Below, in pieces: positions 19,808-57,832 of a stretch of 64,000 nt of DNA. Source of the DNA: an uncultured Alphaproteobacteria bacterium (lineage in GTDB: Bacteria; Pseudomonadota; Alphaproteobacteria; Rhizobiales; Xanthobacteraceae); assembly GCA_963706265.1 (NCBI GenBank), contig CAVPLO010000004.1, positions 1,171,458 to 1,235,457 on the forward strand, read 5' to 3'. The position numbers were made by a program, and so were the translations under genes. Below the pieces are notes generated by a model. That model saw nothing but the letters and a program-made list of their open reading frames with translations, had not been told where the DNA came from and did not search any database. Every line of letters starts with the position of its first letter. Position 1 is the first letter of the stretch.

Positions 19808-21241
19808 ATGATCGACGAAAAGAAGCTCGAAGAGCGCCTGGTCGCGCTGGAAGCGGCCAAATCCTGGTCCCCGCGGGTCGTCTCGCGGCTGGAGATGCTG
19901 CTGCGCTCGGGCACGGACGAGGCCCTCTATCGCATCAATCCAATCCAGTTCGCCACAGAGAAATCGATTGCCGAGCGTGAGGCGATCGATCTTTTCCTCC
20001 ATGCCTGCGTGGCCGGGCTGTTCGACATGGACTGGATGCTGGTTTGTCCGATGTGCTCCGACGTTGTCGAGAGCTTCCGATCCTTACGCAAACTGCACAC
20101 GCATTTTCACTGCCACCTCTGCCAAAGCGATTACGACGCCGCGCTCGACGATTACATCGCGGTGACGTTTACGGTTTCGCCCGCCGTGCGCAGCATCCGC
20201 TTCCATAAACCGGATGCGCTTTCGGCCTGGGATTATGTGTTCCATTATAAGATGACGCCGGGTGGCATAATGCCCGACGGCGTGCCGTGGATCGAGGCTA
20301 CCAAAGGGCTGATGAGGGCGGTCACCCGCATAGAGCCGGGTTCTACGGCCAATCTTGAGGTCGATGCCGCCGAAGGCGGGCTTCTGGGCCAGGATTTCGA
20401 AAGCGACGCCCATTTCTTTTCCCCGGTCGCAAGGGAGGCAGGTGTAACGCCAGCCCATGTGGCGGTCACACTCGACGGCGGCAAATGCGTGGCCGCGACA
20501 GCAAACATCGCGCCCGGCAAGCTCGTGTTCGACGTTCGCAACGCTGGCACGCTGCCGGCAGTATTCGGCATCCTGCAGATTCCGGTGGCGACGTTTCAGC
20601 GCCCGAAGCTTCACTTCGCGCCATCCTTATCCGGCAAGCGACTGCTGATGACGCAAACCTTTCGCGATTTCTTCCGCTCGGAGGTGATCAGCGCCACGGA
20701 GGGCATTGCGGTTCTCGACGTTACCCTCGTATTCACCGATCTCAAGGGCTCGACGGCGCTCTACGAGCGGATCGGCGACCTGAACGCCTACATCCAGGTG
20801 CAGCGGCACTTCCAGCATCTTCTCGACGCCACTGTTCGGCACAATGGCGCCGTCACCAAGACGATCGGTGACGCCGTGATGGCGGCGTTTTTCACTTCGG
20901 CCGACGCGGTGCAGGCGGCACTTGATATGCGCGAGGCCGTGGATCAGCTCAATCGGGACCGCCCGCAGCGTGATTTCATCCTGAAAATCGGCGTGCATCG
21001 GGGAGCCGCGATCGCGGTCACGCTCAACGAGCGGCTCGATTATTTTGGTCAGACGGTCAATATCGCAGCGCGGGTGCAAAACCTCGCGGATGGCGACGAG
21101 ATTTGTATCACCGAAGAAGTTTACGGCGCGCCTGAAGTGGCGGAAATTATTGCGCCATTCCCGGTGGCAAAGAGCGAGGCGGAACTCAAGGGCGTCAGCC
21201 AGGCCATGTCGGTCTATCGTCTGGCCCGAATGGCATCCTAG
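19808..21241 (+). CDS. Class III adenylate/guanylate cyclase with N-terminal DUF5939-like Zn-ribbon domain
   Basis: CPMC...CHLC, FTDLKGSTALYERIGD, KTIGDAVMA, DYFGQTVNIAARVQ. Confidence 0.88.
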   Translation: MIDEKKLEERLVALEAAKSWSPRVVSRLEMLLRSGTDEALYRINPIQFATEKSIAEREAIDLFLHACVAGLFDMDWMLVCPMCSDVVESFRSLRKLHTHFHCHLCQSDYDAALDDYIAVTFTVSPAVRSIRFHKPDALSAWDYVFHYKMTPGGIMPDGVPWIEATKGLMRAVTRIEPGSTANLEVDAAEGGLLGQDFESDAHFFSPVAREAGVTPAHVAVTLDGGKCVAATANIAPGKLVFDVRNAGTLPAVFGILQIPVATFQRPKLHFAPSLSGKRLLMTQTFRDFFRSEVISATEGIAVLDVTLVFTDLKGSTALYERIGDLNAYIQVQRHFQHLLDATVRHNGAVTKTIGDAVMAAFFTSADAVQAALDMREAVDQLNRDRPQRDFILKIGVHRGAAIAVTLNERLDYFGQTVNIAARVQNLADGDEICITEEVYGAPEVAEIIAPFPVAKSEAELKGVSQAMSVYRLARMAS

Positions 21242-21405
21242 TGGAGTGGATTTGACATTCGCTACCCTGTAGCCACGTATTCGCGATGCGAATGTCAAAT
21301 CCAAAACTCCACTAAAAACCTATATTTGCTAGTGGTCCTTTGATTCTAACATTCGCAAAAGTGGCCGCTGAGAAGGGATGCGAATGTTAGAATTCGGACC
21401 ACTAG
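21238..21405 (+). mobile_element. Twin bulged-hairpin element, AB subtype
   Basis: CTAGTGGAGT-GGATTTGACATTCGC hairpin, 13-nt linker, CTAGTGGTCC-TTT-GATTCTAACATTCGCA hairpin; CTAG at both ends. Confidence 0.8.
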
Positions 21406-21570
21406 TGCGGCGAATTTGAAGTTCCTATCAGTGGTTGCAGCGGGTTCGTCATAGGAACTTCAAATTCAAGGCCGCTACTCAAATCAATAAGTTACTAGAG
21501 CTCCTTTGATTCCGAAGTTCGCATCAGAGGTTGCCGCGATATCATGCGAACTTCGGAATCGGAGCTCTAG
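21402..21570 (+). mobile_element. Twin bulged-hairpin element, CD subtype
   Basis: CTAGTGCGGC-GAATTTGAAGTTCCTAT hairpin, linker AATCAATAAGTTA, CTAGAGCTCC-TTT-GATTCCGAAGTTCGCAT hairpin; identical inverted copy at 34793-34961. Confidence 0.85.
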
Positions 21571-21665
21571 AGCATGATCCGGAAAAGTGTGTAGCGGTTT
21601 TCCGAAATCTCAATCAAAGAACCAAAGCGCGATGACGATTTCCATCAAATCTCATCGCGCTTTAG
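21567..21665 (+). repeat. RIME/Bru-RS/CIR-like alphaproteobacterial palindromic repeat (E)
   Basis: ctagagcatgatccggaaaagtgtgtagcggttttccga...aaagcgcgatga...tcatcgcgctttag; related inverted copy near 38318-38438. Confidence 0.7.
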
Positions 21666-21824
21666 TACCCGAGCGACGATCTTCAACAGGTAACGGCCGT
21701 TTCAAAGCCTTCGCCTCATCCCTTGGGGCTCAGATCGCTGTTGCCGTCCCCGCAGCCCACAGAATCATTTATAATGGTTCGTGCAGCGATTTGGGTTGCG
21801 TAAGGGAACCAGAGGGGGCGCGAT

Positions 21825-22034
21825 GTGGCTGATTTTATCGTATTAAAGCGACCGGGACCGCCTTCAAGGGAAGTCCTGGTAAACCTCGACGAAGTCTTGA
21901 TGGTCCAGCCCGGACAGAACACCGGATCGGCGATCCTGTTCGGCAAGGACCATCTGGTAAATTTCGAAGAGGACTTGCCGACCGTGATCCGCCGAATCCA
22001 GAAGGGTCCCTATGTACGAACCGATCAGGGCTAG
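21825..22034 (+). CDS. 69-aa hypothetical protein, FlbD/SwrD-like pattern
   Basis: GTG start after GAGGGG; FIVLKR...VLVNLDEVLMVQ...EEDLPTVIRRI; stop TAG lies within CTAG. Confidence 0.6.
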   Translation: MADFIVLKRPGPPSREVLVNLDEVLMVQPGQNTGSAILFGKDHLVNFEEDLPTVIRRIQKGPYVRTDQG

Positions 22035-22035
22035 G

Positions 22036-22113
22036 CCAGTGGAGCGGATTTGACATTCGCTACCGCCTAGCCGCGAGTTCAGAAAGCGAATGTCAAATCC
22101 AAAACTCCACTAG
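22036..22113 (+). repeat. Single A-type bulged hairpin
   Basis: ccagtggagcggatttgacattcgc...gcgaatgtcaaatcc-aaa-actccactag. Confidence 0.8.
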
Positions 22114-22224
22114 AGAAAGCGCTTAAGAGAAATGGCGGAGAGATTGGAAGATTCGTTTGATCGAAGAACAAAATCAGACTGGAGCGATCTTTATCCCGGT
22201 ATTTCCAACTAAGGCCGGTGGTTA

Positions 22225-22331
22225 TGGATTCCGGGCTCACGCTTCGCGTGCCCCGGAATGACGGATAGATTTGCGATGCGCTTTCAGGCGTCATTCCGGG
22301 ACGCGCCCTTTTGGCGCGGGCCCGGAATCCA
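22225..22331. repeat. REP-like doublet (ggattccggg...cccggaatgacg family)
   Basis: Two inverted GC-rich palindromes; related unit at ~23478-23540. Confidence 0.65.
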
Positions 22332-22333
22332 GC

Positions 22334-22363
22334 AAAAAGCCCGGCACCAGGCCGGGCTTTTTT
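22334..22363. terminator. Bidirectional intrinsic terminator
   Basis: aaaaagcccggc-acca-ggccgggcttttt downstream of the SH3 gene. Confidence 0.7.
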
Positions 22364-22369
22364 CATCGT

Positions 22370-23299
22370 TTAGCGTTGTTGGGGGCCGTGACCTCCGCCA
22401 CGGGCCGGACCGCCGCCAACGTGGGGCGCGGCGTTGATGTGCGGCGCGCCGCCACCGGGATGTGGCATCGCCATCGCGGGCGCCGCGCGCGGCGCCGGGG
22501 TCTGCGCACGCGCGCTCATCGGCGAACCGCGGCCGACATTCGGCCGGGCGACATGCGTCATGGCGGGGCGGCCGGCCGGCGCAGCGGAAAAGCGCGGCGC
22601 TTGACGCGCTGTTGCCGCACGCGGTTGCATGCGCGCATTGGCGCGGGCAGCGCCTCTCTCATGGCCCATAGGCTGATGACCCATGCGCTCGTGGCCCACG
22701 CGGGCCTGCGCCGCAGCCTCACGTCCGCGCGTCTCTCGCGCGCCGCGGAACTGAGCAGCGTTCCGCTCGCGCGTCGGCCGTTCTGCCATGCCGGCGCGCG
22801 GCGTTCGTCCTTCGCCAATCGCGGCGTTTCCGTTACGGGTTGCTGCGCGACCGATGCGGGCTGCCGACCTATTGATCGTCAGCCGCGTTGCGGCACGCTC
22901 ATGCGACGTCCAGTAGTTGTTCCAATAGGCCCGGCGGTGATACCAGGGTCGTCCCGAATAGTAGCTTGACCAGTACGAACTCAACACGAACGGAACGATG
23001 GGCACGTCGATTTCATCGACATAGTCGGGAAGATAGACGTAACTGTTGCGGTAGAGATATTCGAGGTATTGCGAAGATACCCAGCCGCGGTCGCCGGACC
23101 AGCTGACGTCGCACCAGGCGTCGCCCCTCAGACATCCGTGGACGTTGACGCGAGAACCGCCGGGAATGCGATCGACCACCGGAAAGCCGGGGCCGGGACC
23201 GGCCCTCAAGCCCGCCGACTCCGTGACGATGCCGGGCGCCGCGAGCGCGGCGGTCGGCGCCAGCAGCAATGCTGCTGTCAGGACTGCTTTGAGTTTCAT
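22370..23299 (-). CDS. Secreted SH3b-domain protein with long Arg/Ala/Pro/Gly low-complexity tail
   Basis: Signal peptide; LRAGPG.GFPVV..IP.G..V.V.GC...WC.V...G.RGWVS; YW..YY.GRPWY. Confidence 0.82.
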   Translation of the reverse strand: MKLKAVLTAALLLAPTAALAAPGIVTESAGLRAGPGPGFPVVDRIPGGSRVNVHGCLRGDAWCDVSWSGDRGWVSSQYLEYLYRNSYVYLPDYVDEIDVPIVPFVLSSYWSSYYSGRPWYHRRAYWNNYWTSHERAATRLTINRSAARIGRAATRNGNAAIGEGRTPRAGMAERPTRERNAAQFRGARETRGREAAAQARVGHERMGHQPMGHERGAARANARMQPRAATARQAPRFSAAPAGRPAMTHVARPNVGRGSPMSARAQTPAPRAAPAMAMPHPGGGAPHINAAPHVGGGPARGGGHGPQQR

Positions 23300-23576
23300 G
23301 ACACGTTCCTCCTTCAATGCGCAACGTCTGGCCGGTGCGAGCGTTCCGGGTTAGATCGTCGCATGCGCCGAAATGTTGGGGTGACCAGGTGGATCAGCAC
23401 CTGCGGCGTCGGCCGTTCATTCACCGTTCATGTGCGAGGGCTGGCCGCATCAGAGTGGCCATGAGCAATTGGAGGAATGGATTCTCCGATGTGCAATTGC
23501 ACATCGTAGTTCACGCTTCGCGTGCCCCGGAACGACGACGAATGGTATCGCGGGGCTCGCCGCGCGGCTCCAAAAC

Positions 23577-23606
23577 AAAAACCCCGGCATCGCTGCCGGG
23601 GTTTTG
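23577..23606 (-). terminator. Intrinsic terminator after groEL
   Basis: aaaaaccccggca-tcgc-tgccggggtttt. Confidence 0.75.
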
Positions 23607-23684
23607 CGTTTCGTATTCGTTGAGGTCCCGGCTTCTCGCGGAGCGGCATGAAAAATGCCGCACCGCGTCCGGGACAAGGCAGGA

Positions 23685-25352
<1,668 letters not shown>

Positions 25353-25359
25353 CTAAACT

Positions 25360-25463
25360 CCTCGTCCCGAGGAGCCCGCCCCTTGCGGGCGTCTCGAAGG
25401 ACGAGATGGGTTCAGTGGCCTCATCCTTCGAGACGCCGGCGTTGCCGGCTCCTCAGGATGAGG
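25360..25463. repeat. REP-like palindromic doublet between groES and groEL
   Basis: cctcgtcccgaggagc...gtctcgaagga / tccttcgagacg...gctcctcaggatgagg inverted repeat. Confidence 0.65.
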
Positions 25464-25470
25464 AAGCGGC

Positions 25471-25788
25471 TTAAGCGGCCTTCTTCTTGCTGGCGGGGAC
25501 GTCGGTGAGGACGCCCATGATGTCGCTCTCCTTCATGATCAGGAGATCTTCGCCATCGATCTTGACTTCGGTGCCCGACCACTTGCCGAACAGAACGCGG
25601 TCGCCGACCTTGATGTCGATCGGGATCAGCTTGCCGGCCTCGTCGCGGCCGCCCGGACCGACGGCAGTGACTTCGCCCTGGGAGGGCTTTTCCTTGGCCG
25701 TATCCGGAATGATGATGCCGCCTGCGGTCTTCTCTTCGGCGTCGATGCGCTTGACCACGACGCGGTCGTGAAGCGGACGGAATTTCAT
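25471..25788 (-). CDS. groES: Co-chaperonin GroES
   Basis: [27 protein letters not shown]. Confidence 0.99.
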
Positions 25789-25831
25789 GCAGTCCTCCTA
25801 AGATTTTGAAGATGTTTAGAATTTCGGAAAA

Positions 25832-25858
25832 TTGGCAATCACCGGCGGCGAGTGCCAA
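25832..25858. promoter_or_regulatory. CIRCE element 1 (HrcA operator)
   Basis: TTGGCAATC-N9-GAGTGCCAA vs consensus TTAGCACTC-N9-GAGTGCTAA. Confidence 0.8.
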
Positions 25859-25917
25859 GCTCGCAAAACGGAGATAATCCAGAGTTGTGACGGGGACAAG
25901 GCCCTTTAGCAGAAAAA

Positions 25918-25944
25918 TTGGCACTCAAATGAGGCCGCTGCCAA
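25918..25944. promoter_or_regulatory. CIRCE-like element 2
   Basis: TTGGCACTC-N9-CGCTGCCAA. Confidence 0.7.
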
Positions 25945-26059
25945 TTTCTTCGCACAGCGTTAATCCTGGCGCGGCGGTTCAGAAGTCCGCATCATTTCTG
26001 CCGCGGGGTCGCCACGCGGACTTCCGAGCCAAAGGCCGCGCCGCAGCGGCCGGCCCATG

Positions 26060-26086
26060 TTAGCAGGCTCGCTAAGTGGCTGCTAA
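26060..26086. promoter_or_regulatory. CIRCE-like element 3, usg-proximal
   Basis: TTAGCAGGC-N9-GGCTGCTAA. Confidence 0.55.
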
Positions 26087-26229
26087 TGAAGCCTTTTTCA
26101 ACACATCGTTAAACATTTAGGCTTGTGATGGGTTGTTCGCGTGCGTCACATTTCTCTCATGTGAGTGCATCTCGACTCAGGGTGACTCCAGTCACCTCGG
26201 CGGCAATGCACTCCTAAATGGAGGTTGGC

Positions 26230-26514
26230 ATGGTCTCGCGGGTTGGTGTTTCCGAAGACTTCCGGAAACAGGTGCTGGGTTATGGGCTGACGACGGCGGA
26301 AATTCTTTACCGGATGCCGGATCATCCCTCGTTGCTGCAAACCTATGTCTGGCAGAATTACGATCTGTTTCCGAAATTTCCGGCGCTGCGTGACTTCCTG
26401 AGTTTCTGGCAGGCCAAGTTGGAAGGGCCGCTTTATTCAGTCCGTGTCGCGCACTCCAAGCTGATCAAGCCCGCCGAACTGCGTTCGGTCGACGGCGTAT
26501 TCCGCCTGCATTGA
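26230..26514 (+). CDS. usg: Usg family protein
   Basis: GYGLTTAEILYRMPDHPSLLQTYVWQ...LEGPLYSVRVAH; GGAGG RBS. Confidence 0.9.
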   Translation: MVSRVGVSEDFRKQVLGYGLTTAEILYRMPDHPSLLQTYVWQNYDLFPKFPALRDFLSFWQAKLEGPLYSVRVAHSKLIKPAELRSVDGVFRLH

Positions 26515-26520
26515 GTTCTA

Positions 26521-26602
26521 CGTCATTGCGAGCGAAGCGAAGCAATCCAGAGTGGCTTGCATGATTCTGGATTGCTTCGTCACTGCGCTCCTCGCAATGA
26601 CG
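26521..26602. repeat. REP-like palindrome (cgtcattgcgag...ctcgcaatgacg family), copy 1
   Basis: Same family at 39364-39447 and 46370-46452. Confidence 0.8.
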
Positions 26603-26687
26603 GCATGGCGCTCGTTTCCCCCGGACGACCAGCACCCGTTGTGATATGCTTTGCTCTCCTGATTTTCAGGGAAGGGAGAGAACAGAG

Positions 26688-27242
26688 ATGGCCAAGAAGA
26701 AATCAAAGAAGCCGGCCGGACGCGCCGCCGCGACCAGAAAGGCCGCGCAAAAGAAATCGTCCAAAACATCGACGCGCAAGACGCCTGCCAAATCCACCGC
26801 GCGCCGAAAGCTCAAGAGCAAGGGCAGGGCGGCGACGGCCGTCAAGCGCTCTCGGCCGAAGCAGCGCGTCGCCATCAGCCATTACCGCGACGAGGATTTC
26901 AAAGCCGACGGCCTGCGCACATACGCCCACTACCGCGACCTCGGCGTCGCCGAAGCAAGCTCGGGCGTGGCGCGGGCGCATGTCATCCGTCTGATCGGGC
27001 CGTGCGAGCCGGACGTCGTTTCAAAGCTGCATTTCCACGACGTCGATTTCCAGATGGTTTACGTCCTCAAGGGTTGGGTGAAGACCTATATGGAAGGCGT
27101 TGGCGAGACGACGTTCAGCGCGGGAAGTTCCTGGACCCAGCCGTCGCGCATCAAACACTTCATCATGGATTATTCCGACGACGTCGAGTTGCTCGAGGTG
27201 ATCCTGCCGGCCGACTTCAAGACCGTCGAACTGGCGGTGTAA
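26688..27242 (+). CDS. Cupin-domain protein with Lys/Ala-rich N-terminal tail
   Basis: GLRTYAHYRDLG, HFHDVDFQMVYVLKGW, IKH. Confidence 0.82.
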   Translation: MAKKKSKKPAGRAAATRKAAQKKSSKTSTRKTPAKSTARRKLKSKGRAATAVKRSRPKQRVAISHYRDEDFKADGLRTYAHYRDLGVAEASSGVARAHVIRLIGPCEPDVVSKLHFHDVDFQMVYVLKGWVKTYMEGVGETTFSAGSSWTQPSRIKHFIMDYSDDVELLEVILPADFKTVELAV

Positions 27243-27339
27243 CTGTTGGCGGCGGTCGCGAACCACGCCGGAATGCCATGCACGGCTTCTCCCCTGCGGA
27301 CGTTGACATTGAAACCCTCGTCAGTCACCGATCACCATT

Positions 27340-28563: not shown

Positions 28564-28593
28564 GCCTGACCTCGCCCGCAACCGTGGCGCGAT

Positions 28594-30388: not shown

Positions 30389-30447
30389 GGTTTCCGTGTC
30401 GCTGGTGCTGGACGGGAATCGCCGTCGCGCCAGGCGACCTTACGACG

Positions 30448-31215: not shown

Positions 31216-31238
31216 TTGTTTCCTGCCTTTTTGGTGCT

Positions 31239-33598: not shown

Positions 33599-33766
33599 CT
33601 CGTGGTCCTATTCCAACATTCGCATCCCTTCTCAGCGGGCACTTTTGCGAATGTGAGAATCAAAGGACCACTAGCCACTATGAGATTCTAGTGGAGTTTT
33701 GGATTTGACACTCGCATGACGAACCCGCGGCAAGGTAGGTAGCGAATGTCAAATCCACTCCGCTAG
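33599..33766 (-). mobile_element. Twin bulged-hairpin element, AB subtype (inverted)
   Basis: Reverse-complement homolog of 21238-21405, 168 bp; 13-nt linker at 33675-87 between two CTAGs. Confidence 0.8.
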
Positions 33767-33859
33767 CGCAGTGGGCGGCCAGCGCATTTGCGGCCGGCGG
33801 TTGTCCCGGTCGATACGCAGAGTTTGAGGCAGGTATGTTTCGGAGACTTCTGTTCGCTT

Positions 33860-34025
33860 GGCAGAGCGGTTCTGACATTCGTATCCTGTCGCGGCAGTCG
33901 CTTTTTTACGAATGTCAGAACCAAAGGGACACTCGCAACCATATGATTTTAGTGTGGCTTTGACTCTGGCCTTCCTTCGACCAACTCGCGGCGACACCGA
34001 AAGGAACGTCGGTGTCGCCATCCTG
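33860..34025 (-). repeat. Degenerate twin-hairpin element of a third subtype
   Basis: 16-bp stem GGTTCTGACATTCGTA/TACGAATGTCAGAACC plus AAA bulge; linker (minus strand) AATCATATGGTTG; decayed second hairpin with TTT bulge. Confidence 0.55.
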
Positions 34026-34796
34026 GCGCTCTTGCTTGTGGCCCTCGCCGGCGCGCCCTCGAGGGGGGCGTCTGCGGCCAATGGCGACCGCAACCGAATC
34101 ATCGCTTTGAACGAAAAGTCCTGCGCCGACATGAGGTTGCACAAGACGCTGAGGGTCGGCAGCGTCGTCGATTGCCAGCGGCTGATGCTTTTGAAATTTG
34201 ACTATTTCGGTTTCGACGGTCGGGTACATGACGACGGCGAACTGGTGGTCCTGGATGCAACCGCCGATCATGTTGCGAACATCTTCAATGCATTGCTCGA
34301 GATGCATTTCCCGATCCAACAAGCCAAATTGCTGAACCATTACGATGGCGACGATGACGCATCGATGGCAGACAACAACACGTCGGCGTTCAACGACCGG
34401 ATGGTCGCGGGAGGAACCAGCCTTTCAGTTCATGCCTACGGTCTGGCGATAGATTTGAACCCGATCCAAAATCCGTTCCTGCAAAAGGAACACGGCGCGC
34501 TGCAGGTCAGTCCCAAAGCCGGCGAGAGTTACCTGAACCGCGCCGACGTTCGTCCGGGAATGGCTGAGGCCGTCGTCGACCTTTTTGCGGAAAACGGCTT
34601 CCCGATCTGGGGAGGGGATTGGAAAAACCCGATTGACTATCAACATTTTCAGGTCCGGCGCGATGTTGCCAGGCGCTTGGCGGAATCATCGAGCGCAAGC
34701 GCGAAGGCGATTTTTGAAATGCAGATTGAGCAGTATCGTCGTTGCCGCCGGGCAGGTCAGGGTAGAAGGGCTTGTGCCGCCCATGCCCCTGCCTAG
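33912..34796 (+). CDS. M15 family metallopeptidase (D,D-carboxypeptidase / L-Ala-D-Glu peptidase-like); start uncertain
   Basis: NNTSAFN.R, SVHAYGLAIDLNP..NP, WGGDW...DYQHF. Confidence 0.85.
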   Translation: MSEPKGHSQPYDFSVALTLAFLRPTRGDTERNVGVAILALLLVALAGAPSRGASAANGDRNRIIALNEKSCADMRLHKTLRVGSVVDCQRLMLLKFDYFGFDGRVHDDGELVVLDATADHVANIFNALLEMHFPIQQAKLLNHYDGDDDASMADNNTSAFNDRMVAGGTSLSVHAYGLAIDLNPIQNPFLQKEHGALQVSPKAGESYLNRADVRPGMAEAVVDLFAENGFPIWGGDWKNPIDYQHFQVRRDVARRLAESSSASAKAIFEMQIEQYRRCRRAGQGRRACAAHAPA

Positions 34797-34961
34797 AGCT
34801 CCGATTCCGAAGTTCGCATGATATCGCGGCAACCTCTGATGCGAACTTCGGAATCAAAGGAGCTCTAGTAACTTATTGATTTGAGTAGCGGCCTTGAATT
34901 TGAAGTTCCTATGACGAACCCGCTGCAACCACTGATAGGAACTTCAAATTCGCCGCACTAG
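34793..34961 (-). mobile_element. Twin bulged-hairpin element, CD subtype (inverted)
   Basis: Base-for-base reverse complement of 21402-21570. Confidence 0.88.
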
Positions 34962-36174: not shown

Positions 36175-36343
36175 CCAGTGCGGCGAATTTGAAGTTCCTA
36201 TCAGTTTCCACTGCAACTACTTTATAGGAACTTCAAATTCAAAGCCGCACCAGAAGCCTATATTTACTAGGAGCTCCTTTGATTCCGAAGTTCGCATCAG
36301 AGGTTGCTGCGAATGCTTGCGAACTTCGGAATCGGAGCTCTAG
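36175..36343 (+). mobile_element. Twin bulged-hairpin element, CD subtype
   Basis: Same stems as 21402-21570 with different loops; linker AAGCCTATATTTA. Confidence 0.82.
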
Positions 36344-36438
36344 TGGTCCAGTTCAAACCTTCGCATCCCTTCTCAGCGGACATTCGCATTCTGAACCTGC
36401 GGCCAGGTGGGTAGCGAATGTCAAATCCACTGCGCTAG
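36340..36438 (-). repeat. Internally deleted AB element (inverted)
   Basis: Outer B arm fused to an A hairpin; shares a CTAG with the preceding element and with the stop of the next ORF. Confidence 0.7.
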
Positions 36439-38218: not shown

Positions 38219-38299
38219 CTAGTGGAGTGGATTTGACATTCGCTACCCACCTGGCCGCGAGTTCGTGAAACGCGAATGTCAAATCCCAAACTCCACTCG
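38219..38299 (+). repeat. Single A-type bulged hairpin
   Basis: ctagtggagtggatttgacattcgc...gcgaatgtcaaatcc-caa-actccact. Confidence 0.8.
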
Positions 38300-38317: not shown

Positions 38318-38438
38318 GCCAAGCGCGATTCTCAAGCGAACGAGCGGGCAACGCCTCGGACCATGTCATCGCGCTTTTTTGCGTGAGCATGATCTTTTCG
38401 GAAAAACCGCCACACACTTTTTCCGGATCACGCTTTAG
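38318..38438 (-). repeat. RIME/Bru-RS/CIR-like repeat (E), inverted
   Basis: aagcgcgat...atcgcgctt and gcatgatcttttcggaaaa...ttttccggatcacgctttag. Confidence 0.65.
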
Positions 38439-39363: not shown

Positions 39364-39447
39364 CGTCATTGCGAGGAGTGAAGCGACGAAGCAATCCATC
39401 GGGCGACAAAATGCAGGCTGGATTGCTTCGCTGCGCTCGCAATGACG
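39364..39447. repeat. REP-like palindrome, copy 2
   Basis: cgtcattgcgag...gcaatcc / ggattgc...ctcgcaatgacg. Confidence 0.8.
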
Positions 39448-43624: not shown

Positions 43625-43629
43625 CAGAG

Positions 43630-44331: not shown

Positions 44332-44332
44332 T

Positions 44333-44483: not shown

Positions 44484-44488
44484 AAGTC

Positions 44489-45511: not shown

Positions 45512-45654
45512 GGGGGCGCGTCCTCCAAGTTTCGTGATTTGTTAGAGGCGTCTAATGCCATGTCCGAAGGCCGAGGTACATTGGATTTCCAACGGTGGAA
45601 TGCGACCAAAGCAGGGGGTAGGATGGGCCGTCGCTTCATCTTGCGGAATTCCCC

Positions 45655-46359: not shown

Positions 46360-46369
46360 GATGCCTCAT

Positions 46370-46452
46370 CGTCATTGCGAGGAGCGAATGCGACGAAGCA
46401 ATCCAGAGTCGTTTGCGTAACGCTGGATTGCTTCGCTTCGCTCGCAATGACG
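46370..46452. repeat. REP-like palindrome, copy 3
   Basis: cgtcattgcgag...ctcgcaatgacg. Confidence 0.8.
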
Positions 46453-46481
46453 AGCTATCTATCCAACAATAAGGAAACGCC

Positions 46482-48070: not shown

Positions 48071-48219
48071 TCCCTCCCCCGCGAAGCGTGGGGAGGGTGG
48101 CCGGTCGAAGACCGGTCGGGTGGGGGTACCTCTGCAACTGCAACTCTCAAGGTTCGGGCGTGCCGAAAGCACCCCCACCCCGGCGCTTCGCGCCGACCCT
48201 CCCCACAAGGGGGAGGGAT
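48070..48219. repeat. REP-like cluster (ctcccc...ggggag family)
   Basis: Multiple GC palindromes between convergent genes. Confidence 0.7.
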
Positions 48220-48239
48220 CAGGAGAGAGCCGCGATGAC

Positions 48240-49130: not shown

Positions 49131-49154
49131 GGGGTTTCCTCCCTCGGACGAGCG

Positions 49155-50570
49155 CTACTTCGGCGGCATCGGCCAGGGCCGTTGCGGGCCGCGCAGGGTC
49201 TCGAACGCTTTCGCCATGCCGAGCACCCCGAGATCGTCGAAACGACGGCCGATAATCTGCACGCCGATTGGAAAGCCCGTCGCGTCATAGCCGCCGTTGA
49301 TGGAGATCGCCGGATTCTCCGCCATGTTCCAGGGCACGGTGTAGGCGATGTGCTCGAAGGGGTGATCGGGATCGTTCAGAGGGGCGGCGAGTTCGGCCGG
49401 AAATTTCACGACCGGCGAGACCGGCGAGATCAGGTAGTCGATATCGGCGAAAAGCTTCGCGGCTGCGGCGCGGATCGCCATGGTGGCATTGAAGCCTCTG
49501 ATGACGTCGACGCCCGATAGTTTGGCTCCGGCTTCCGCCCATTTGAGAATGTAGGGAAGCGTCTTGCCGCGTTCGGCGGACGAGAGCTTCGAAAGATCGT
49601 CCCAGAGGCGCGCACGCCAGAAATTATCGAGACCATCGAGCATCGCGCGCGTCACGACGCCCTTGACCTCGCTGACGACAGCGCCGGCGTCTTCAAAGGC
49701 CTTCGCCGCCTTGATCGCAACGTCGTGGACTTCCTGCTCCAGCGCCTGGCCGACGCCGAGGTCGAGCAGAAGCCCGATGCGCAATTTCCGTGCAGGCTTG
49801 TCGAGCGCCTTCCAGTGGATGTCGTTGGGCGGCAGGCTCATGCCGTCGCGGCGGTCGGGCTTTACCATCACGCTCATCATCAGCGCGGCGTCGTCGACGG
49901 TGCGCGTTATCGGACCCGCGACGCGGCCGACATAGGGCGGATCGATCGGCACGCGTCCGAGGCTCGGTTTGAGTGCGACAAGGCCACACCAGCAGGCCGG
50001 CAGGCGCACCGAGCCGCCAATATCGGTGCCAAGATGCAGCGGCCCGTAACCGGCCGCACCGGCCGCACCTGCCCCCGCGCTCGAACCGCCGGGGTTCTGG
50101 CGCAGGTCCCAGGGATTGCGGGTGAGGGGGTGGAAGCTGGAGAGGCCCGACGACAGCATGCCGAAATCCGGCATCGTGGTCTTGGAGAAGATGATCGCGC
50201 CGGCTTCGCGCAGCCGCGCGGCCGGCGGCGCGTCGGCTTCCGCGGGCACCAGCTTCATCGTGGCGGTGCCAAGCGGTACGGCTACGCCCTTGGTCGCGAT
50301 GTTGTCCTTGATGGTGACGGGAACGCCATCGAGCGCCCCATGTGCTTCGCCCTTTTGCCAGCGTTCGGTCGAGGCTTTGGCGGCCTGACGCGCGCCTTCC
50401 GGATCAAAGGCGTAGAGCGCCTTGATGTGAGGCTCCCACACCGCGATATGCGCCAGCACGTCGTCGAGGACTTCGCTCGGCGAGAATTGCCGCGCGCGGA
50501 AGCCCGCGATCAGATCGGTCGCGCTGAGGTCATGAAGCGCGGATACCGCGTCGTTGGAGTTCTTCCTCAA
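49155..50570 (-). CDS. Amidase-signature family amidase
   Basis: GGSSAGAG, GTDIGGSVRLPA. Confidence 0.92.
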   Translation of the reverse strand: MRKNSNDAVSALHDLSATDLIAGFRARQFSPSEVLDDVLAHIAVWEPHIKALYAFDPEGARQAAKASTERWQKGEAHGALDGVPVTIKDNIATKGVAVPLGTATMKLVPAEADAPPAARLREAGAIIFSKTTMPDFGMLSSGLSSFHPLTRNPWDLRQNPGGSSAGAGAAGAAGYGPLHLGTDIGGSVRLPACWCGLVALKPSLGRVPIDPPYVGRVAGPITRTVDDAALMMSVMVKPDRRDGMSLPPNDIHWKALDKPARKLRIGLLLDLGVGQALEQEVHDVAIKAAKAFEDAGAVVSEVKGVVTRAMLDGLDNFWRARLWDDLSKLSSAERGKTLPYILKWAEAGAKLSGVDVIRGFNATMAIRAAAAKLFADIDYLISPVSPVVKFPAELAAPLNDPDHPFEHIAYTVPWNMAENPAISINGGYDATGFPIGVQIIGRRFDDLGVLGMAKAFETLRGPQRPWPMPPK

Positions 50571-51739
50571 GCATGGGCGCCTGCCGGCAGACGGTTCTCG
50601 ATGATGCGGGCGAATACGCTGGCGCCGATCGGCAGAATCTTGTCGTCGAGCGTGTAGCCGGGATTATGCACCGGCACGGAGCCGTCATGACCGAGCCAGA
50701 AATAGGCGCCGGGCACGGCGTGCAGCATGTCGGCGAAATCCTCGCTGCCCATCTTGGGCTTGGAACGGGTCAGCACCTTGGCCGGATCGACCACCGTGCG
50801 TGCAACGTCGGCCACCACCTTGCAATGCTCGTCGTTGTTCACCAGGACGCTGAAGATGTCCCTGATATCGACAGATATCTCGACCTGGAAAGCGGCGGCC
50901 AGCCCGGCGCAGAGGCTGCGCATTCGCTCGCGGATCAGCGCGCGCACCTCGTCTGAGAAGGCGCGCACGGTGCCTGCGAGTTTGGCCTCGCCCGGGATCA
51001 CGTTATAGGCGGAGCCGGCATGAATTTGCGTAATCGACAGCACTGCGGCCTCGTTCGGCGAGACGTTGCGGCTGACGATGGTTTGCAGCGCCTGGCCCAG
51101 CGTCATCGCAATCACGACCGGGTCCCTGGAGTGCTCAGGCATCGCGCCATGGGCGCCGTATCCTGATATCGTGATGTCGAAGAAATCCGCGCCCGCCATC
51201 GCCGGTCCGGGCAGCACCGCAAGTTCGCCGTGGTCGAGGTCGGGCGCGTTGTGCAGGCCGTATATTTCGTCACAGGGAAATTTCTCGAACAACCCGTCCT
51301 TGATCATGGCGCGCGCGCCGCCAAGGCCTTCCTCGGCCGGCTGGAAGATGAAATGCACGGTGCCGTCGAAATTGCGGGTTTCGGCGAGATAGCGTGCAGT
51401 GCCGAGCAGGATGGTGGTGTGACCGTCATGGCCGCAGCCGTGAAAACGGCCGGGAATAGTCGAGCGCCATTTCAGGTTGGTGTTCTCTTCCATCGGTAGC
51501 GCGTCCATGTCGGCGCGAAGCCCGATGCGCCTTTTGCCGGAGCCTTTGCCCTTGAGCACGCCGACAACGCCAGTCCCGCCAAGTCCGCGATGCACCTCGA
51601 CGCCCCATTGCGTGAGCTTGTCGGCGACGATGCCGGAGGTGCGGACTTCTTCGAATCCGATTTCAGGATGGGCGTGCAGGTCCCGGCGGATGGCGGTCAG
51701 TTCGTCGGCAAAACGCTCGATGCGATCAATCGTGGGCAT
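50567..51739 (-). CDS. M20D amidohydrolase (hippurate hydrolase-like)
   Basis: RRDLHAHPE, RADMDAL, HGCGHDGH, QPAEEG, SEDF. Confidence 0.92.
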   Translation of the reverse strand: MPTIDRIERFADELTAIRRDLHAHPEIGFEEVRTSGIVADKLTQWGVEVHRGLGGTGVVGVLKGKGSGKRRIGLRADMDALPMEENTNLKWRSTIPGRFHGCGHDGHTTILLGTARYLAETRNFDGTVHFIFQPAEEGLGGARAMIKDGLFEKFPCDEIYGLHNAPDLDHGELAVLPGPAMAGADFFDITISGYGAHGAMPEHSRDPVVIAMTLGQALQTIVSRNVSPNEAAVLSITQIHAGSAYNVIPGEAKLAGTVRAFSDEVRALIRERMRSLCAGLAAAFQVEISVDIRDIFSVLVNNDEHCKVVADVARTVVDPAKVLTRSKPKMGSEDFADMLHAVPGAYFWLGHDGSVPVHNPGYTLDDKILPIGASVFARIIENRLPAGAHA

Positions 51740-51744
51740 ATCTC

Positions 51745-53280
51745 TTATCCAATGGCGTTGGAATGAAGCTGTGACGAGTAAGGCGCGATGAAGGCGGGCC
51801 CCTGCGGCTTAAGTCGAATGCCCGGACGCAATTTGGTCCAGGGCAGTAACGCGGGATCGGCGGGCATGGCGCCGGGGGCGGCGCAGATCAGGAGCTTTTC
51901 GGCGATCGGTTCAAAGTCGGCGCGGAAATGCACCGAACTCTTGTTAACAAGGATCGCCTGTTCGGTCGGTTCGATCCCGACATAGCGGAACATCGCTTGA
52001 TCCGCCAGTTGGGCCTTGTGCGAACTGACGACCACGCGGATGTCGCCGATCCGCAAGCACGCCGACGGCCCCATATCCATGTCGCGGCCGCCGAAGTAGG
52101 GGCCGGGTGCGACGAATTTGCCGTCGGACAATGTCTCGACCACGAACGTCGCCTCGAATGGCGCGTCGCCGGGAATACCGGATTTGCCGCCGAGGGCGAG
52201 CGTGACCGTAGCGCCGACGCCTGCTTCATGCGCGGCCCTGGCCGAAGCCGGATCATAGATCGCGCCGATCGCCGCGCGCGTCGCCCTGTTGCTGACCAGC
52301 GCCCGCAGCATGCCGGTGGTATCGGAATCGCCGCCGGCGCCGGGATTATCCTGGGTGTCGGCAATGATGACGGGCTTGTGCGCGGTCTTCGACAGTTCCA
52401 TGGCGAGCCGCACGCCTTCGTCGGGCGCGTAGATGCGGCCGCCGAAATCGCGCTCATGGCCTTCGATCAGGGCGGCGAGCTTGTCGACCACGGCCTGCGC
52501 GTCGGCTTGGGTTCGTCCATAGGCGAAGACGCTCGGTCCGCAATGGGCGAAATCGGCGGCCGGAAATCCCGGGCAGAACGAAAGCGTCGGCACGGCCTCG
52601 CTCTGAAGGGCCGCGAGCTTCTCGTAGACGTCCTTGGTCGGCTGATCATTGGTGCATTGCCAGCTGATGGGAATCAGGAACGGCAGTTGCCGAAAGGCCT
52701 TCTCCAAACGCCGACCGTCGCGCAGCAGAAGTGCAAGGTGACGTGCGGCGGCGCGGCCGGTGTCGGCCATGTCGACATGGGGATAGGTGCGATAGGCGAT
52801 CAGGGCGTCGGCGTGATGCACCATGTCAGGCGTGACATTGGCGTGCAGATCGAGGCTGACGACCAGCGGCAACGCATTGCCGATCACTTGGCGCACGCGG
52901 CGCAAGATCTCGCCTTCGCCGTCGTCGAAATGCTCGCTCACCATGGCGCCGTGCAGGTCGAGATAGACCGCATCAAGCGGCCCGGCGTCGGCGATGCCGT
53001 CGACGATCGCTGCTGCGATGCGCTCGTAGGCATCCCTGGTCACATGGGCGCAGGGACTGGCAGCGGCGAAAATCGTCGGGACCAGCTCCCAGCTATGCGT
53101 TTGCGCTTCACCGATAAAACCGGCGAGGCCGACATTGATGTTGCGCATCGCCTTGAGCAGGTCGGTGCCTTGCGTCATCGCGGGCCAACCGCCGCCGTGA
53201 ACGAAATCGGCGTATCTCGCTTTCGTCGGCGCGAAGGTATTGGTTTCGTGCAGAAAACCGCCGACGGCGATACGATGCAT
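51745..53280 (-). CDS. M81 family metallopeptidase (MlrC-like)
   Basis: HETNTF, LDLHGAM, DLHAN, YPHVD, DNPGAG. Confidence 0.9.
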   Translation of the reverse strand: MHRIAVGGFLHETNTFAPTKARYADFVHGGGWPAMTQGTDLLKAMRNINVGLAGFIGEAQTHSWELVPTIFAAASPCAHVTRDAYERIAAAIVDGIADAGPLDAVYLDLHGAMVSEHFDDGEGEILRRVRQVIGNALPLVVSLDLHANVTPDMVHHADALIAYRTYPHVDMADTGRAAARHLALLLRDGRRLEKAFRQLPFLIPISWQCTNDQPTKDVYEKLAALQSEAVPTLSFCPGFPAADFAHCGPSVFAYGRTQADAQAVVDKLAALIEGHERDFGGRIYAPDEGVRLAMELSKTAHKPVIIADTQDNPGAGGDSDTTGMLRALVSNRATRAAIGAIYDPASARAAHEAGVGATVTLALGGKSGIPGDAPFEATFVVETLSDGKFVAPGPYFGGRDMDMGPSACLRIGDIRVVVSSHKAQLADQAMFRYVGIEPTEQAILVNKSSVHFRADFEPIAEKLLICAAPGAMPADPALLPWTKLRPGIRLKPQGPAFIAPYSSQLHSNAIG

Positions 53281-53300
53281 GGGTTTGTCTCAGGTGAGGC

Positions 53301-53448
53301 CTAAACTATCGTTCCAGCTTCCACGACGGGGCGGAAGTTGCCGAAATCCCATCTGCGTCCGGGTGCGGCGTCAAGCAGCGCGCGGGTATGGGCCTGTTGC
53401 GGTTTTGTGAGGACTTGTGCCGCCGGACCCCTGTTCGACGATCGCCGC
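53301..53448 (-). pseudogene. 3' remnant of a dipeptide/oligopeptide ABC ATPase
   Basis: IVEQG (frameshifted) PAAQVLTKPQQAHTRALLDAAPG, the typical DppF/OppF C-terminus; no ATPase body upstream. Confidence 0.7.
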
Positions 53449-53455
53449 GTCGCGC

Positions 53456-54175
53456 TTAGTGGTCTTCCATGCGGTTCTCGCCAATCGACATCGCGCAAAT
53501 CCGCGACAGATGCACATAGGGCAGGCCGGTCTCAGCCGCCCAGGCATTGAATTGCGCCTGCACCTTGGCCAGATCGCCTTTCGACTTCACCTCAGTTGCG
53601 ATGTCGAGCCCGGCATCGCGCAGGCAGGCGACCACGTCCTGTGAGGTGACAAAGCCGTCCCAGCCGATGAAGCGCAAGAACATCTGGCCGGTGTTGCCGC
53701 CGAGGCGGCTGCCGCGCTTGCTGAGCAGATCGAGAAGGCCGATCTGGTCGGAGGAGGGCCAGCCGATGAGGAATTTTCCGAAGCTGCCGTGTTCTTTTGA
53801 GATGTCCTGGACGAAGGCGGCATTGTCGCGAACCGACGCGATCTTGGCACCGTTGCGCACAATGCGGGTGTCGGACAGCAGTCCGTGCCAGAAATCGTCA
53901 GGCTGGAAAATCAATCTCGCCGGCTTGAAGCCGAGGAAGGCGTTCTCGAAGCCCGCCCATTTGTTTTCGATCACGCGCCAGGCAAAGCCTGCCGAAAACA
54001 CGCGCTGGGTCATCTCTGCGAGAATGCGGTCGTCCGCCAGTTTGGCGAGCGCTTTCATGTCGGGTTTCTTCGGCAAAAGCTTTTCGAGCGCCTTTCCGCC
54101 GCCCTTGCGCTGTTCGGCCCTGGCGCGAATGGGTTTGAAGGGAAGGGCGCGGGGCTTGCCGGTCGTCTCCGCCAT
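53456..54175 (-). CDS. DNA-3-methyladenine glycosylase I (Tag)-like protein
   Basis: VFSAGFAWRVIENKW.GFE.AF, IVRNGAKI. Confidence 0.78.
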   Translation of the reverse strand: MAETTGKPRALPFKPIRARAEQRKGGGKALEKLLPKKPDMKALAKLADDRILAEMTQRVFSAGFAWRVIENKWAGFENAFLGFKPARLIFQPDDFWHGLLSDTRIVRNGAKIASVRDNAAFVQDISKEHGSFGKFLIGWPSSDQIGLLDLLSKRGSRLGGNTGQMFLRFIGWDGFVTSQDVVACLRDAGLDIATEVKSKGDLAKVQAQFNAWAAETGLPYVHLSRICAMSIGENRMEDH

Positions 54176-54185
54176 GAGAATGCGC

Positions 54186-55316
54186 CTATGTCAGGGTCGC
54201 CAGCAAGCCGGCCATCAGGCGGCCGCGCTCGGCGAGGCTGTCGACCTCGATGTGCTCATTGAGCGTATGCGCGTCGGCGCCGCGAGCGCCGAGCCCATCC
54301 AGCGTCGGAATTCCCATCGCGCCGGTGAAATTGCCGTCGGAGCCGCCGCCGGCCGAGCCATGCGGCAGATCGAGCCCCAGGGCAGCAGCGACGCCGCGCG
54401 CCTTTTCATAAAGCGCCATCGTGCCGGCGTCCGGCTCCCACACCGGCCGCGTCACGCCCCGTGTCACCTTGAACGTCACGTCGTTGGAGGAACCGGACAG
54501 CGCCAGCATCCGCTCGACGCCGCGATCGAGATCGGCCTGACGCTTGGCCATGCTGAGCGCCTCACCGGTGCAGGTGGTGGCGACGCAATTGACCCATTGG
54601 CCGCCATGCACGATGCCGACCGAGAAGGTGCAATCGTCCGACGTCATGCCGTCGATGACCAGGATCTGCCGCGCCATCTCGCGAATGGCCGAGCGTCCCG
54701 ACGATAGCGTGGCGCCGGCGTGGCTCGGCTTGCCGGTGGTTTCCAGATTGAACCGCGCGATCGCGTAGCGCCCGGTGACGACGCCGTTGTTCGGCCGGCC
54801 GGGTTCGGGCACCAGCACATATTTGTTGCGCCTGGCTTCGGCCTCGATGAGTTCTCGCGTCGAGGGGGTGCCGACTTCTTCGTCCGGAGTGAACAATACG
54901 GTGACGGGAACGGGCGTCGTGAAGGCGGCGTGCGCCAGCTGCCGTATCGCTTCCAGCGCGAGGTAATTGCCGCCTTTCATGTCGAAGATGCCGGGGCCGA
55001 AGCATTTGTTGCCCTCGCGCCGCCATTTCAGCTTTTCGATCGTGCCGACGGGATGAACCGTGTCGAGGTGGCCGGCGATCAGGATGCCGGGCTCGCCCTG
55101 CCTCGGATGGGGGAATTTCGCCCGCACGCAGCCGCCAAACCCCTGCCGCCCTGCGATACGCTCGATCGACCCTCCCATGATTGCCATTTCACGCGCTGCA
55201 AGATCGAGCATCCGGTTGACGGCGGAGGCATCCCAGGTCGGGCTTTCGCATTCGACCCAGGCGCGCAAGCCCGCGAGCATGGATTCGGAATCAAAGGGAA
55301 GGTTGGCGGGATTCAT
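54186..55316 (-). CDS. M20 peptidase (glutamate carboxypeptidase-like)
   Basis: GHLDTV, GPGIFDMKGG, DEEVG, GGSDGN. Confidence 0.9.
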   Translation of the reverse strand: MNPANLPFDSESMLAGLRAWVECESPTWDASAVNRMLDLAAREMAIMGGSIERIAGRQGFGGCVRAKFPHPRQGEPGILIAGHLDTVHPVGTIEKLKWRREGNKCFGPGIFDMKGGNYLALEAIRQLAHAAFTTPVPVTVLFTPDEEVGTPSTRELIEAEARRNKYVLVPEPGRPNNGVVTGRYAIARFNLETTGKPSHAGATLSSGRSAIREMARQILVIDGMTSDDCTFSVGIVHGGQWVNCVATTCTGEALSMAKRQADLDRGVERMLALSGSSNDVTFKVTRGVTRPVWEPDAGTMALYEKARGVAAALGLDLPHGSAGGGSDGNFTGAMGIPTLDGLGARGADAHTLNEHIEVDSLAERGRLMAGLLATLT

Positions 55317-55919
55317 CGGAAGGCTCCCGTTCAGAAGGGGTATTTCGACAGGCGAAACGCAAAAGCGTGCCCTACAAGAAGGATCGGTGACATCTTTGTA
55401 AAGTCACACTTCGGCAAGCCAGCGGCCAGCTTACGTCTCCACTGAGGGAAAATCCCGGCCTGTTTGCTGCCGGAGCGGGCGCCGCCATAAAGCGAATCGA
55501 CAACGCTCAAGCTTCGCCCTTGATTTGAGTGTCACGTATTCATCGCGGTCGCCTGCTTATGTTGGCCGACACTGTTGTCGACATTGTTGGGCAGCATGGT
55601 ATGATGACCAACATTGTCAGCAACATCGCAAGTGCGGCGGAGGCGTGCGGAAAATTTTTTTAGGGTCAAGTGCGCATGAACTGATCGCCGTTGGAAAGCG
55701 AACACAAACGCTTTCGCGGCAAAAAATAACTTGCCTCTGTCGTGGTTTAGCAAGCGATGCGACGAAGATGGCAATTGAGCAGCACACGACGTGCTGCGTT
55801 TGTTGGTGCTGGAGAAGGCGCGAACCAAATCGGTTCGACGTCAATCCGACACATGCGCGTCATTGACGCAAATTATCGATCCCCGCGCTTCTGCCACTCG
55901 TTTTAGCTCTGGGGAAAAG

Positions 55920-57668
55920 ATGAAAAATTTGAAGCTGAAATCCGCTCTGCTGTCTTCGGCTGCGCTGATTGCCGTGGCCACCATGACGACAAGCGGTTCG
56001 GTCGCGGCAACAGCCTCGCCGCCGAAGTGTCTCCCGTCGTCAGCCTGATCGACGACGTCGCCTCGAACGCCAGGAAGTCGTCGGCGGTCAATCCGGACAG
56101 GCTGCCGACCAAGACGCCGATCAAGCACCTCGTCGTTGTCTTCAACGAGAACCGTTCGTTCGATCATTACTTCGGCACATATCCGAACGCCGTGAATCCG
56201 GAAGGCGAGCCGCTTTTCGAGCCCGCCAGGAACACGCAGCGCGATATCAACAACCTGGATTCGAATTCAGCGTCTGCTCGACCAACAATCCGAACCTGAC
56301 AAATATGCTCAACAGCCCGAATGCGTCCAATCCGTTCCGTCTCGATCGCACGCAGGCCGCCAGCGGCGACCAGGACCACTCGTATACACCCGAACAGAAA
56401 GCCTATGACGCCGGCAATCAACGACCTCTTCCCGCTGGATGTCGGTACGCGGCACCGCCGGTGGCGCCGGCGCCTTCGGCACCAAAGCGCTGACGATGGG
56501 CTATTTCGACGGCAATACGGTCACCGCGTTCTGGAACTACGCCCAGAACTACGCGATGAGCGACAATTCCTGGTCTGACGACTTTGGTCCGTCGACGCCT
56601 GGCGCGCTCAACATGTTCGGCGGCAATACAAACGGCGCAGTAGTGCCTGCGGGCCTTTCGGCGAACACGATTCCGGACGGCCAGGGTGGATTGAGTTTGA
56701 TCAACGATACCGATCCCACGTTTGACGTCTGCTCGAGCAAGACGGCCCAGGTCTCCATCAACGCCCCGAACATCGGCGACCTGCTCAACGCAGCCGACAT
56801 TCCGTGGGGTTCGTTCATGGGTGGTTTCAATCTGCAAACCGTCGCCGAAAACGGCACGTCGGGTTGTACGCGTAGTTCGTTCAGCCAGGTCACCGGCGCC
56901 TCGACTGCCGACTACATCCAGCATCATGCCTGGTTCCAGTACTACGCGTCGACGTCGAATCCGACCCACGCCCGTCCGACTTCGACGACGGCGATCGGCT
57001 ACACCCATGTTCCTGGTCACCCGAAAAAGGTCGACCCGGCCAACCATGCCTACGATCTGGAAGACTTCACCAACGCCGTCGGCGCCGGCAACTACCCTGC
57101 CGTTTCCTTCATCAAGCTGCCGGCCTTCCAGGATGGTCATGCCGGTTACTCCAATCCGCTCGACGAGCAGACCGGGGTGGTCAACCTGATCAACTTTCTT
57201 CAGCAGCAGCCCGATTGGGATACGACGGCAGTGATCATTGCCTATGACAACTCCGACGGCTGGTACGATCATGCGTTCGCCACGACGGTGCACGGTTCGT
57301 TCAACCTGACTGCGGATGCGCTGAATGGCACGGGCAACTGCGGCATCCCCGGAACAACCCCGAAGCCGCTCGGCGTCAACGGTCAGGCGGTTGATGGCCG
57401 CTGCGGTCCGGGTACCCGCCAGCCGTTCCTGGTGATCTCGCCCTATGCCAAGAAGAACTACGTCAGTCACGTCCTGATCACGCAGGCCTCGATCCCGCAA
57501 TTCATCGAGGACAACTGGCTGAACAGCCAGCGTCTCGGCAAAGGCTCTTTCGATGCCTCGACCGGTTCGATCATGGACATGTTCAACTTCAACAAGAAAA
57601 ACTCGGCGAAGCTGATCCTCGATCCGACCTTCGGCACCGTGGATACCAGGTCGAAGGTCAAGAACTAG
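55920..57668 (+). CDS. Phospholipase C / acid phosphatase (phosphoesterase) family protein; several indels in the 5' 550 bp
   Basis: Signal peptide; PIKHLVVVFNENRSFDHYFG; FGPSTPG; DGHAGYS; YDNSDGWYDH; GTRQPFLVISPY. Confidence 0.82.
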
Positions 57669-57832
57669 AGCTCCGATTCCGAAGTTCGCAAGCAACCGCG
57701 GCAACCGCTGATGCGAACTTCGGAAATCAAAGGAGCTCTAGCAACTTATTGATTCTAGGGCGGCCTTGAATTTGAAGTTCCTATGACGAACTGGCCGCAA
57801 CACTGATAGGAACTTCAAATTCGCCGCACTAG
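57665..57832 (-). mobile_element. Twin bulged-hairpin element, CD subtype (inverted), inside an operon
   Basis: CTAG at both ends, the left one containing the PLC stop; linker (minus strand) AATCAATAAGTTG. Confidence 0.85.

Follow-up and report, generated by a model that had tools for sequence, protein, structure and literature searches.

We showed that the 168-bp twin-hairpin elements bounded by CTAG, which recur in a 64,000-nt window of contig CAVPLO010000004.1 from an uncultured soil bacterium of the Xanthobacteraceae (genome G000, 4.33 Mb, 77% complete), are real, abundant and mobile. The reading that we favour, with a probability of about 0.76, is that the element is a MITE (a miniature transposable element with inverted repeats) of the IS630 family, which carries four copies of the terminal inverted repeat (TIR), inserts at CTAG and is moved in trans by an IS630-family transposase. 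The initial annotation had taken these hairpins for an undescribed mobile or recombination system; the mobility was confirmed, while "undescribed system" was too strong, since CIR-type architecture and IS630-mobilised MITEs are known. Because insertion occurs at CTAG and the arms match IS630 ends, the copies are likely small parasitic elements of unusual four-TIR design that borrow a transposase, rather than a new recombination system.

Using a profile made from the window copies, 501 matches were found in G000, 348 of them full length, at 421 loci; the family makes up 1.7% of the DNA of this genome, and 1022 of its 2473 CTAG sites lie inside copies. All six full and three partial copies annotated at first were present in the window (Table 1), and the partial copy at 36340-36438, correctly located, proved to be internally deleted with both outer ends retained. 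Most full copies are 165–170 nt long, and the unit between the two TA dinucleotides in CTAG measures 163–165 bp. The copy at 21402-21570 is predicted to fold into two hairpins at −50.6 kcal/mol (z = −11.0), which none of 200 shuffled sequences equalled. Geometry was counted in the 256 of the 348 full copies that passed a pairing filter (92 were dropped). A bulge of 3 nt is found in 183 hairpins on the left and 223 on the right, most of the others having one of 4–5 nt; the linker has 13–14 nt in 235 copies. The initial observation is confirmed, with the corrections that the bulge is not always AAA or TTT and that left and right halves are unlike each other, each subtype having its own pair: clustering gave four groups (147, 105, 75 and 20 copies) and one singleton, with left and right arms in fixed pairs. 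The element is non-coding, with 2–6 stops in every frame of the two copies checked. Its linker is within one mismatch of WATCAANNNNTTR, which we take to be the consensus of integration host factor (IHF), in 70 of the 256 copies versus 3 in shuffled sequences; IHF binding to the linker is a prediction. GANTC occurs 1.5 times per copy compared with 0.34 times per 168 bp genome-wide, in stems and linker near positions 75, 100–105 and 150. The loops vary in other respects, but both contain a GCNGCG-like motif, on the same strand. Short variants of 117–133 bp, with loops of ~4 nt and with arms, bulge and linker kept, were found in two other genomes (L283, L293 and L301 in G220; L285 and L302 in G226).

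The arms resemble the ends of an IS630 element in G013. A blind inverted-repeat search at 85 IS630 loci returned 62 end pairs with the consensus C/TAGTGTCCTG....GAARTTCG, and a TIR matrix was built from 61 of them (one duplicate dropped, a few pairs landing in flanks retained, TAG excluded). Median scores were 21.7 bits for the IS ends and +2.8 (left) and +10.2 bits (right) for the outer arms (n = 348 each), compared with −24.1 bits for 2822 other CTAG flanks and −20.8 bits for shuffled arms. The inner arms (n = 256) scored −8.6 and −15.8 bits when intact and +1.2 and +10.2 bits after removal of the bulge; each element thus consists of four TIR copies. The two outer ones are in register with CTAG and the two inner ones are displaced by 3–4 bp, the "bulge" being a spacer of 3–4 nt. 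In other families, the right arms of many copies reach 18–25 bits, like IS ends. The element shares TIR sequence, register and CTAG target with the IS870-related, CTAGTG-ended clade of IS630, but it has no transposase gene, and each TIR is accompanied by a second, spaced copy further in; among 109 IS630 loci, neither this doubling nor an IS630 flanked by the hairpins of the 168-bp element was seen. In a tree of 39 transposases, the CTAGAGC-ended elements formed one supported group separate from the CTAGTG-ended ones, where the labels of L320, L321, L275 and L311 (a CTAGAGC end) were assigned afterwards from their ends.

Mobility was evident from several comparisons. A group II intron reverse transcriptase gene of a Martelella plasmid is interrupted by a copy that, compared with two intact homologues, adds exactly 165 bp at CTAG. 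Presence/absence polymorphism, a check suggested by the initial annotation, was examined against G018 in 400 kb selected around known copies: of the 25 full-copy loci of G018 that have collinear flanks, 20 are empty in G000, and of 25 such G000 loci, 19 are empty in G018 (the copy at 57665-57832 of the window is missing from its matching site there), so most sites are occupied in one genome and empty in the other. Two empty sites read exactly one CTAG. Tandem junctions overlap by 4 nt in 24 of 25 cases. Nine whole copies are inserted at an inner CTAG of a host element that belongs to a different subtype and has matching halves, eight of them in the orientation of the host (p = 0.04; e.g. C4:15259-15588 and C1:199170-199503 of G000); end-to-end tandems show no orientation bias. 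Identical dispersed copies occur in G000, and they bear out, together with the empty sites and the nesting, the earlier description of a non-autonomous mobile element. The median divergence from the nearest copy is 5.8%, which suggests that most copies are older than the typical stay of an IS. End variants are seldom common with the nearest copy (1 of 13 and 0 of 8), and CTAG is intact in 81–88% of the youngest copies versus 42–48% of the oldest, as expected of ends that are derived from the target. In four DNA sequencing runs, no contig joining across an element site was found.

Elements of the IS630 family are reported to prefer the TA in CTAG as target. A transposase supplied in trans would bind the two outer arms, cut adjacent to TA and excise the element; insertion at the TA of another CTAG with duplication of TA would then regenerate CTAG at both ends and so allow tandems. 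The inner arms would offer the same binding sequence 3–4 bp out of register with their CTAG, and may be bound and left uncut, while their CTAGs could serve as insertion targets. As the element is so short, IHF might assist the meeting of its ends by bending the linker. For IS630/ISY100, cut-and-paste transposition, TA duplication and a ~24-bp footprint on the TIR are described (PMC2170065).

The matching, CTAGTG-ended transposase clade is present in 79 of 151 genomes of the genus, but several observations weigh against the IS630 reading. No transposase of this clade was found in G000 (77% complete), where a six-frame IS630 profile search returned the CTAGAGC-type IS alone, and yet G000 has identical dispersed copies. 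No match to PF13358 was obtained in the copy-rich genomes G018 (97%), G104, G180 and G306 (99%), and only 6 of 15 copy-rich genomes of the genus carry the matching transposase, some as weak matches. Co-occurrence is also weak (57 genomes with both, 40 with the element only, 21 with the IS only and 32 with neither, in a table that assumes the same genomes in both draws and in which kin are not independent). The main G000 subtypes were matched at both ends by no IS found, and the most frequent left arm reaches only ~0.5 bits in the TIR matrix. Moreover, most empty sites have diverged (CTTG, CTAA, CTTA, CTGG or unalignable) so that CTAG is not visible, and duplication of TA and of CTAG would leave the same sequence, so that the empty sites do not distinguish the two. 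A transient helper IS would explain copy-rich genomes that have no transposase, and we consider the helper likely to be transient in many hosts.

The same observations allow another explanation, in which the element has ends of IS630 origin and now depends for its movement on a different, resident enzyme (a domesticated or unrelated recombinase or nuclease) that needs the four arms or the extruded hairpins, comparable to repetitive extragenic palindromic (REP) sequences and their REP-associated tyrosine transposases (RAYT). This is unlikely, although it would account for near-complete, copy-rich genomes that lack IS630, for the identical copies in G000, for the orientation bias of the nested copies, and for a geometry that is conserved over ten families even though the loops shrink to ~4 nt in G220. 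No candidate gene for such an enzyme was found. On the other side stand the six-frame search of G000, which gave only the CTAGAGC-type IS, the 5.8% divergence and age of most copies, and the open reading frames listed between close copies, among which no nuclease or recombinase was prominent as judged by eye. The HTH_32 genes of G018, G104 and G306, which also speak against a resident enzyme, look like IS30/IS481/IS3-type transposases with ends unrelated to the arms.

Other candidate mobilisers were rejected: IS30/IS481-like elements on their unrelated ends, the CTAGAGC-ended IS630 on its ends, and Y1 transposases because the two loci in G000 had no CTAG in the fetched stretch and were flanked by other palindromes. 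At these two loci (L103 and L104, G000 C5:700197 and C4:347212), the Y1 transposase genes are RAYT-like and have GTAG-tagged palindromes on their flanks. A recently amplified IS30-like element with ends unrelated to the arms was observed in G018 (L341, 9 copies). An IS5/IS427-type remnant beside a half element (L107:1372-1926, G000 C1:16771) was also set aside: its end differs from the arms, so it was taken to have inserted at the inner CTAG. IS5/IS427-type ends are seen at the inner CTAG of the left half element in L107:1372-1926, with G000 C5:311565-311665 listed alongside, and copies of the CTAGAGC-ended IS630 lie at element ends in G159 (L304 and L310). The family supplies insertion targets for IS5 and IS630 elements, and many of its CTAGs are at stop codons.

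The stem covariation noted at first is real and strong. In an alignment of 38 copies, 96.7% of 1855 cells were paired and 33 of 49 pairs changed on both sides, as high as in none of 500 shuffles, a result that is not a probability because the copies are related. When subtypes were taken separately, both arms showed the same change 62 times in the left hairpin (191 copies) and 54 times in the right (224 copies), the expected numbers being no higher than 2.9 and 3.7; the pairing filter raises these counts somewhat. Among distinct double-change events, 16 of 30 (left) and 19 of 29 (right) are private to one copy. Outer CCAG/CTGG variants accompany the same inner variant (odds ratios 9–44, n = 237) and not the other end. 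One-sided (G-U) cells number ~22 versus 310 two-sided changes, which points to copying at the DNA level. What keeps the hairpins perfect is likely the copying of one arm to the other once the element has inserted, which may proceed by template switching or conversion. Many of the double changes occur in a single copy only, which argues for such copying, so covariation is no proof of an enzyme that reads the fold. Strong stem covariation in a repeat may have this origin in general and should be interpreted with caution.

This bears on the model of the initial annotation, in which a tyrosine recombinase or an HUH transposase would recognise the copies, in the form of folded single strands, as attC- or REP-like sites. 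The fixed position of the bulge and the strong covariation would fit such sites. We nevertheless regard this model as very improbable: the arms fit the ends of IS630 DDE transposons in sequence and register, the target is CTAG as for IS630, CTAG is gained at both ends, and end variants are not inherited. Recognition of the fold by an integrase or HUH enzyme is not supported by the two Y1 loci of G000 either, which have other palindromes, and arm-to-arm copying explains part of the covariation. Copies are dispersed among ordinary genes and no gene-cassette array was seen, tyrosine recombinases and IS110 not having been searched for.

Matches to a covariance model built from 38 copies were obtained in 97 of 150 genomes of the genus (a tally that takes in the unpublished G016, on which nothing else here depends) and, among other families of the class, in 9 of 149 genomes; since no more than 19 candidates per genome were scored, the matches do not amount to copy numbers. 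Copies were also present on seven plasmid records of Hyphomicrobiales, while a phage collection gave no match to the element and an Rfam scan of the window none. Half matches in G024 and G007 that resembled IS ends proved to be full copies of another subtype. Among intact single copies, 35 of 110 are at the TAG stop of a gene, versus 254 of 1449 other CTAGs. In the window, the TAG stop of a DUF5939 and guanylate-cyclase gene (19793-21241) lies within the left CTAG of the copy at 21238-21405; among 62 homologous genes, 29 have CTAG at this stop codon; in at least one of them the 168-bp element is present in opposite orientation, and in others different hairpin repeats occupy the site. Homologues of this gene are 80–95% identical across distant genera, and its CTAG stop is a recurrent target of several hairpin families.

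The bias towards stop codons, the richness in GANTC and the recurrence of GCNGCG in both loops are what would be expected if a MITE had spread but its hairpins were retained by host selection on RNA or DNA, as 3′ stabilisers, terminators or CcrM/IHF sites. This explanation is quite unlikely, as G000 and G018 do not share most of the sites, the scarcity of one-sided changes points to DNA-level copying, and enrichment at stops follows equally from the loss of intragenic insertions. Under the IS630 reading, copies within genes would be purged and those at intergenic and stop-codon sites would remain.

Among known systems, RUP of Streptococcus pneumoniae, whose proposed mover is IS630-Spn1, is described as a non-coding element of ~100–200 bp with TA ends, IS630-like TIRs and many intergenic copies that also inserts into mobile genes (PMC2229807). 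RUP, however, is one stem-loop with 9-bp TIRs, whereas the present element has four TIR copies of ~25 bp, a linker between two hairpins, and CTAG as its target. CIR1-4 (Caulobacter, Brucella), RIME and Bru-RS, which were compared by description only, are alphaproteobacterial and intergenic, with two long arms and a linker, TA ends and GANTC (PMC2229807). The 168-bp element likewise has two stem-loops, a linker, TA ends and intergenic sites, but it does not share the length of ~110 bp and the GANTC at the terminal loop described for CIR, being ~168 bp long with GANTC elsewhere. The part of that review available to us lists no TIR for CIR and leaves the mobility mechanism open (PMC2229807), and the present work names a candidate transposase, directly testable, for this class of twin-hairpin repeats. 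The 155-bp Correia/NEMIS element is also a MITE that ends in TA and has an IHF site in its interior (PMC2229807); it has a single TIR pair, and IHF binding was demonstrated there while it is predicted here. REP/BIME/REPIN sequences with RAYT, including Br-REP1 and Br-REP2, are similarly abundant intergenic palindromes in inverted pairs. The Br-REP1 and Br-REP2 consensus sequences, as far as given in the source available to us, are unrelated to the 168-bp element (PMC5082802), and copies of that element do not flank the Y1 transposase gene at either of the two G000 loci (L103, L104). MITEPye1 is a different element. No description of the 168-bp family was found in the literature, although subscription papers, ISfinder or supplements may hold one; the accessible main text of a 2024 MITE review (PMC10969869) contains neither IS630 nor Rhizob-.

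A second family of twin hairpins, ~105 bp long, occurs at 28 loci in G000. Its members start with CTAGAGC like the CTAGAGC-ended IS630 group, a match judged by eye, and the family is presumably the more likely counterpart of CIR/RIME. In G144, which additionally carries a CTAGAGC-ended IS630, there are three copies of a CTAGTG-ended IS630, every one of them enclosed by a pair of inverted ~105-bp twin hairpins in a unit of 1402 bp (Table 1); the unit is >99.6% identical at the three sites, and two copies have the same changed IS end. It may have moved as a composite transposon by means of RIME-like hairpin ends, or may have been homogenised by conversion. Similar arrangements are seen in L134 and L139, while in G011 the ~105-bp hairpins adjoin IS ends singly and in either orientation. 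It is possible, though doubtful, that the Alphaproteobacteria hold a class of four-TIR minitransposons, with the 168-bp and ~105-bp families each matched to a separate IS630 clade. In such a class, inner TIRs that are spaced and left uncut would form a special transpososome together with a linker bent by IHF, some hosts would provide a resident helper enzyme, and pairs could carry DNA as in G144.

Table 1. Features of the two twin-hairpin families (window coordinates, except for the last row).
Feature	Position	Strand	Remark
Full element, TGGAGT/TGGTCC subtype	21238..21405	+	
Full element, TGCGGC/AGCTCC subtype	21402..21570	+	One CTAG common with each neighbour
Outer left arm of 21402-21570	21402..21426	+	CTAG target and IS630-like TIR
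Linker of 21402-21570	21482..21494	+	Fits consensus WATCAANNNNTTR; predicted IHF site
Inner right arm of 21402-21570	21495..21522	+	Right-TIR copy, terminal and internal parts split by 3-nt spacer
3-nt spacer (TTT) in that inner right arm	21505-21507		
Outer right arm of 21402-21570	21546..21570	-	IS630-like TIR and CTAG
Left hairpin alone	22036..22113	+	
Degenerate left hairpin (half copy)	25967..26039	+	Overlooked at first
Full element, TGGAGT/TGGTCC subtype	33599..33766	-	
Degenerate full element, TGTGGC/TGTCCC-like subtype	~33858..34022	-	Ends approximate; overlooked at first
Full element	34793..34961	-	At TAG stop of M15 peptidase gene 33912-34796
Full element, TGCGGC/AGCTCC subtype	36175..36343	+	
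Element with internal deletion	36340..36438	-	Both outer ends kept; CTAG common with 36175-36343
Left hairpin alone	38219..38299	+	
Full element	57665..57832	-	At TAG stop of phosphoesterase gene 56439-57668
~105-bp CTAGAGC-ended twin hairpin, second family	21567..21665	+	Partly deleted; inside end CTAG of 21402-21570
Partial ~105-bp twin hairpin, second family	38367..38438	-	
1402-bp hairpin-IS630-hairpin units L256-L258	G144:C1 ~1334069-1335470, ~2500490-2501891, ~7103444-7104848		

The copies at 21402-21570 and 34793-34961 are 100% identical. Both ~105-bp twin hairpins of the window had been overlooked by the initial annotation. Other palindromic repeats, of CGTCATT-tagged and CCGGAAT types, are at 22203-22330, 26521-26602, 39364-39447 and 46392-46452, and look like CGTC-REPs and Br-REPs. 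Positions 42-1750 hold three diverged direct repeats with a period of ~720 bp, which are probably paralogous coding units.

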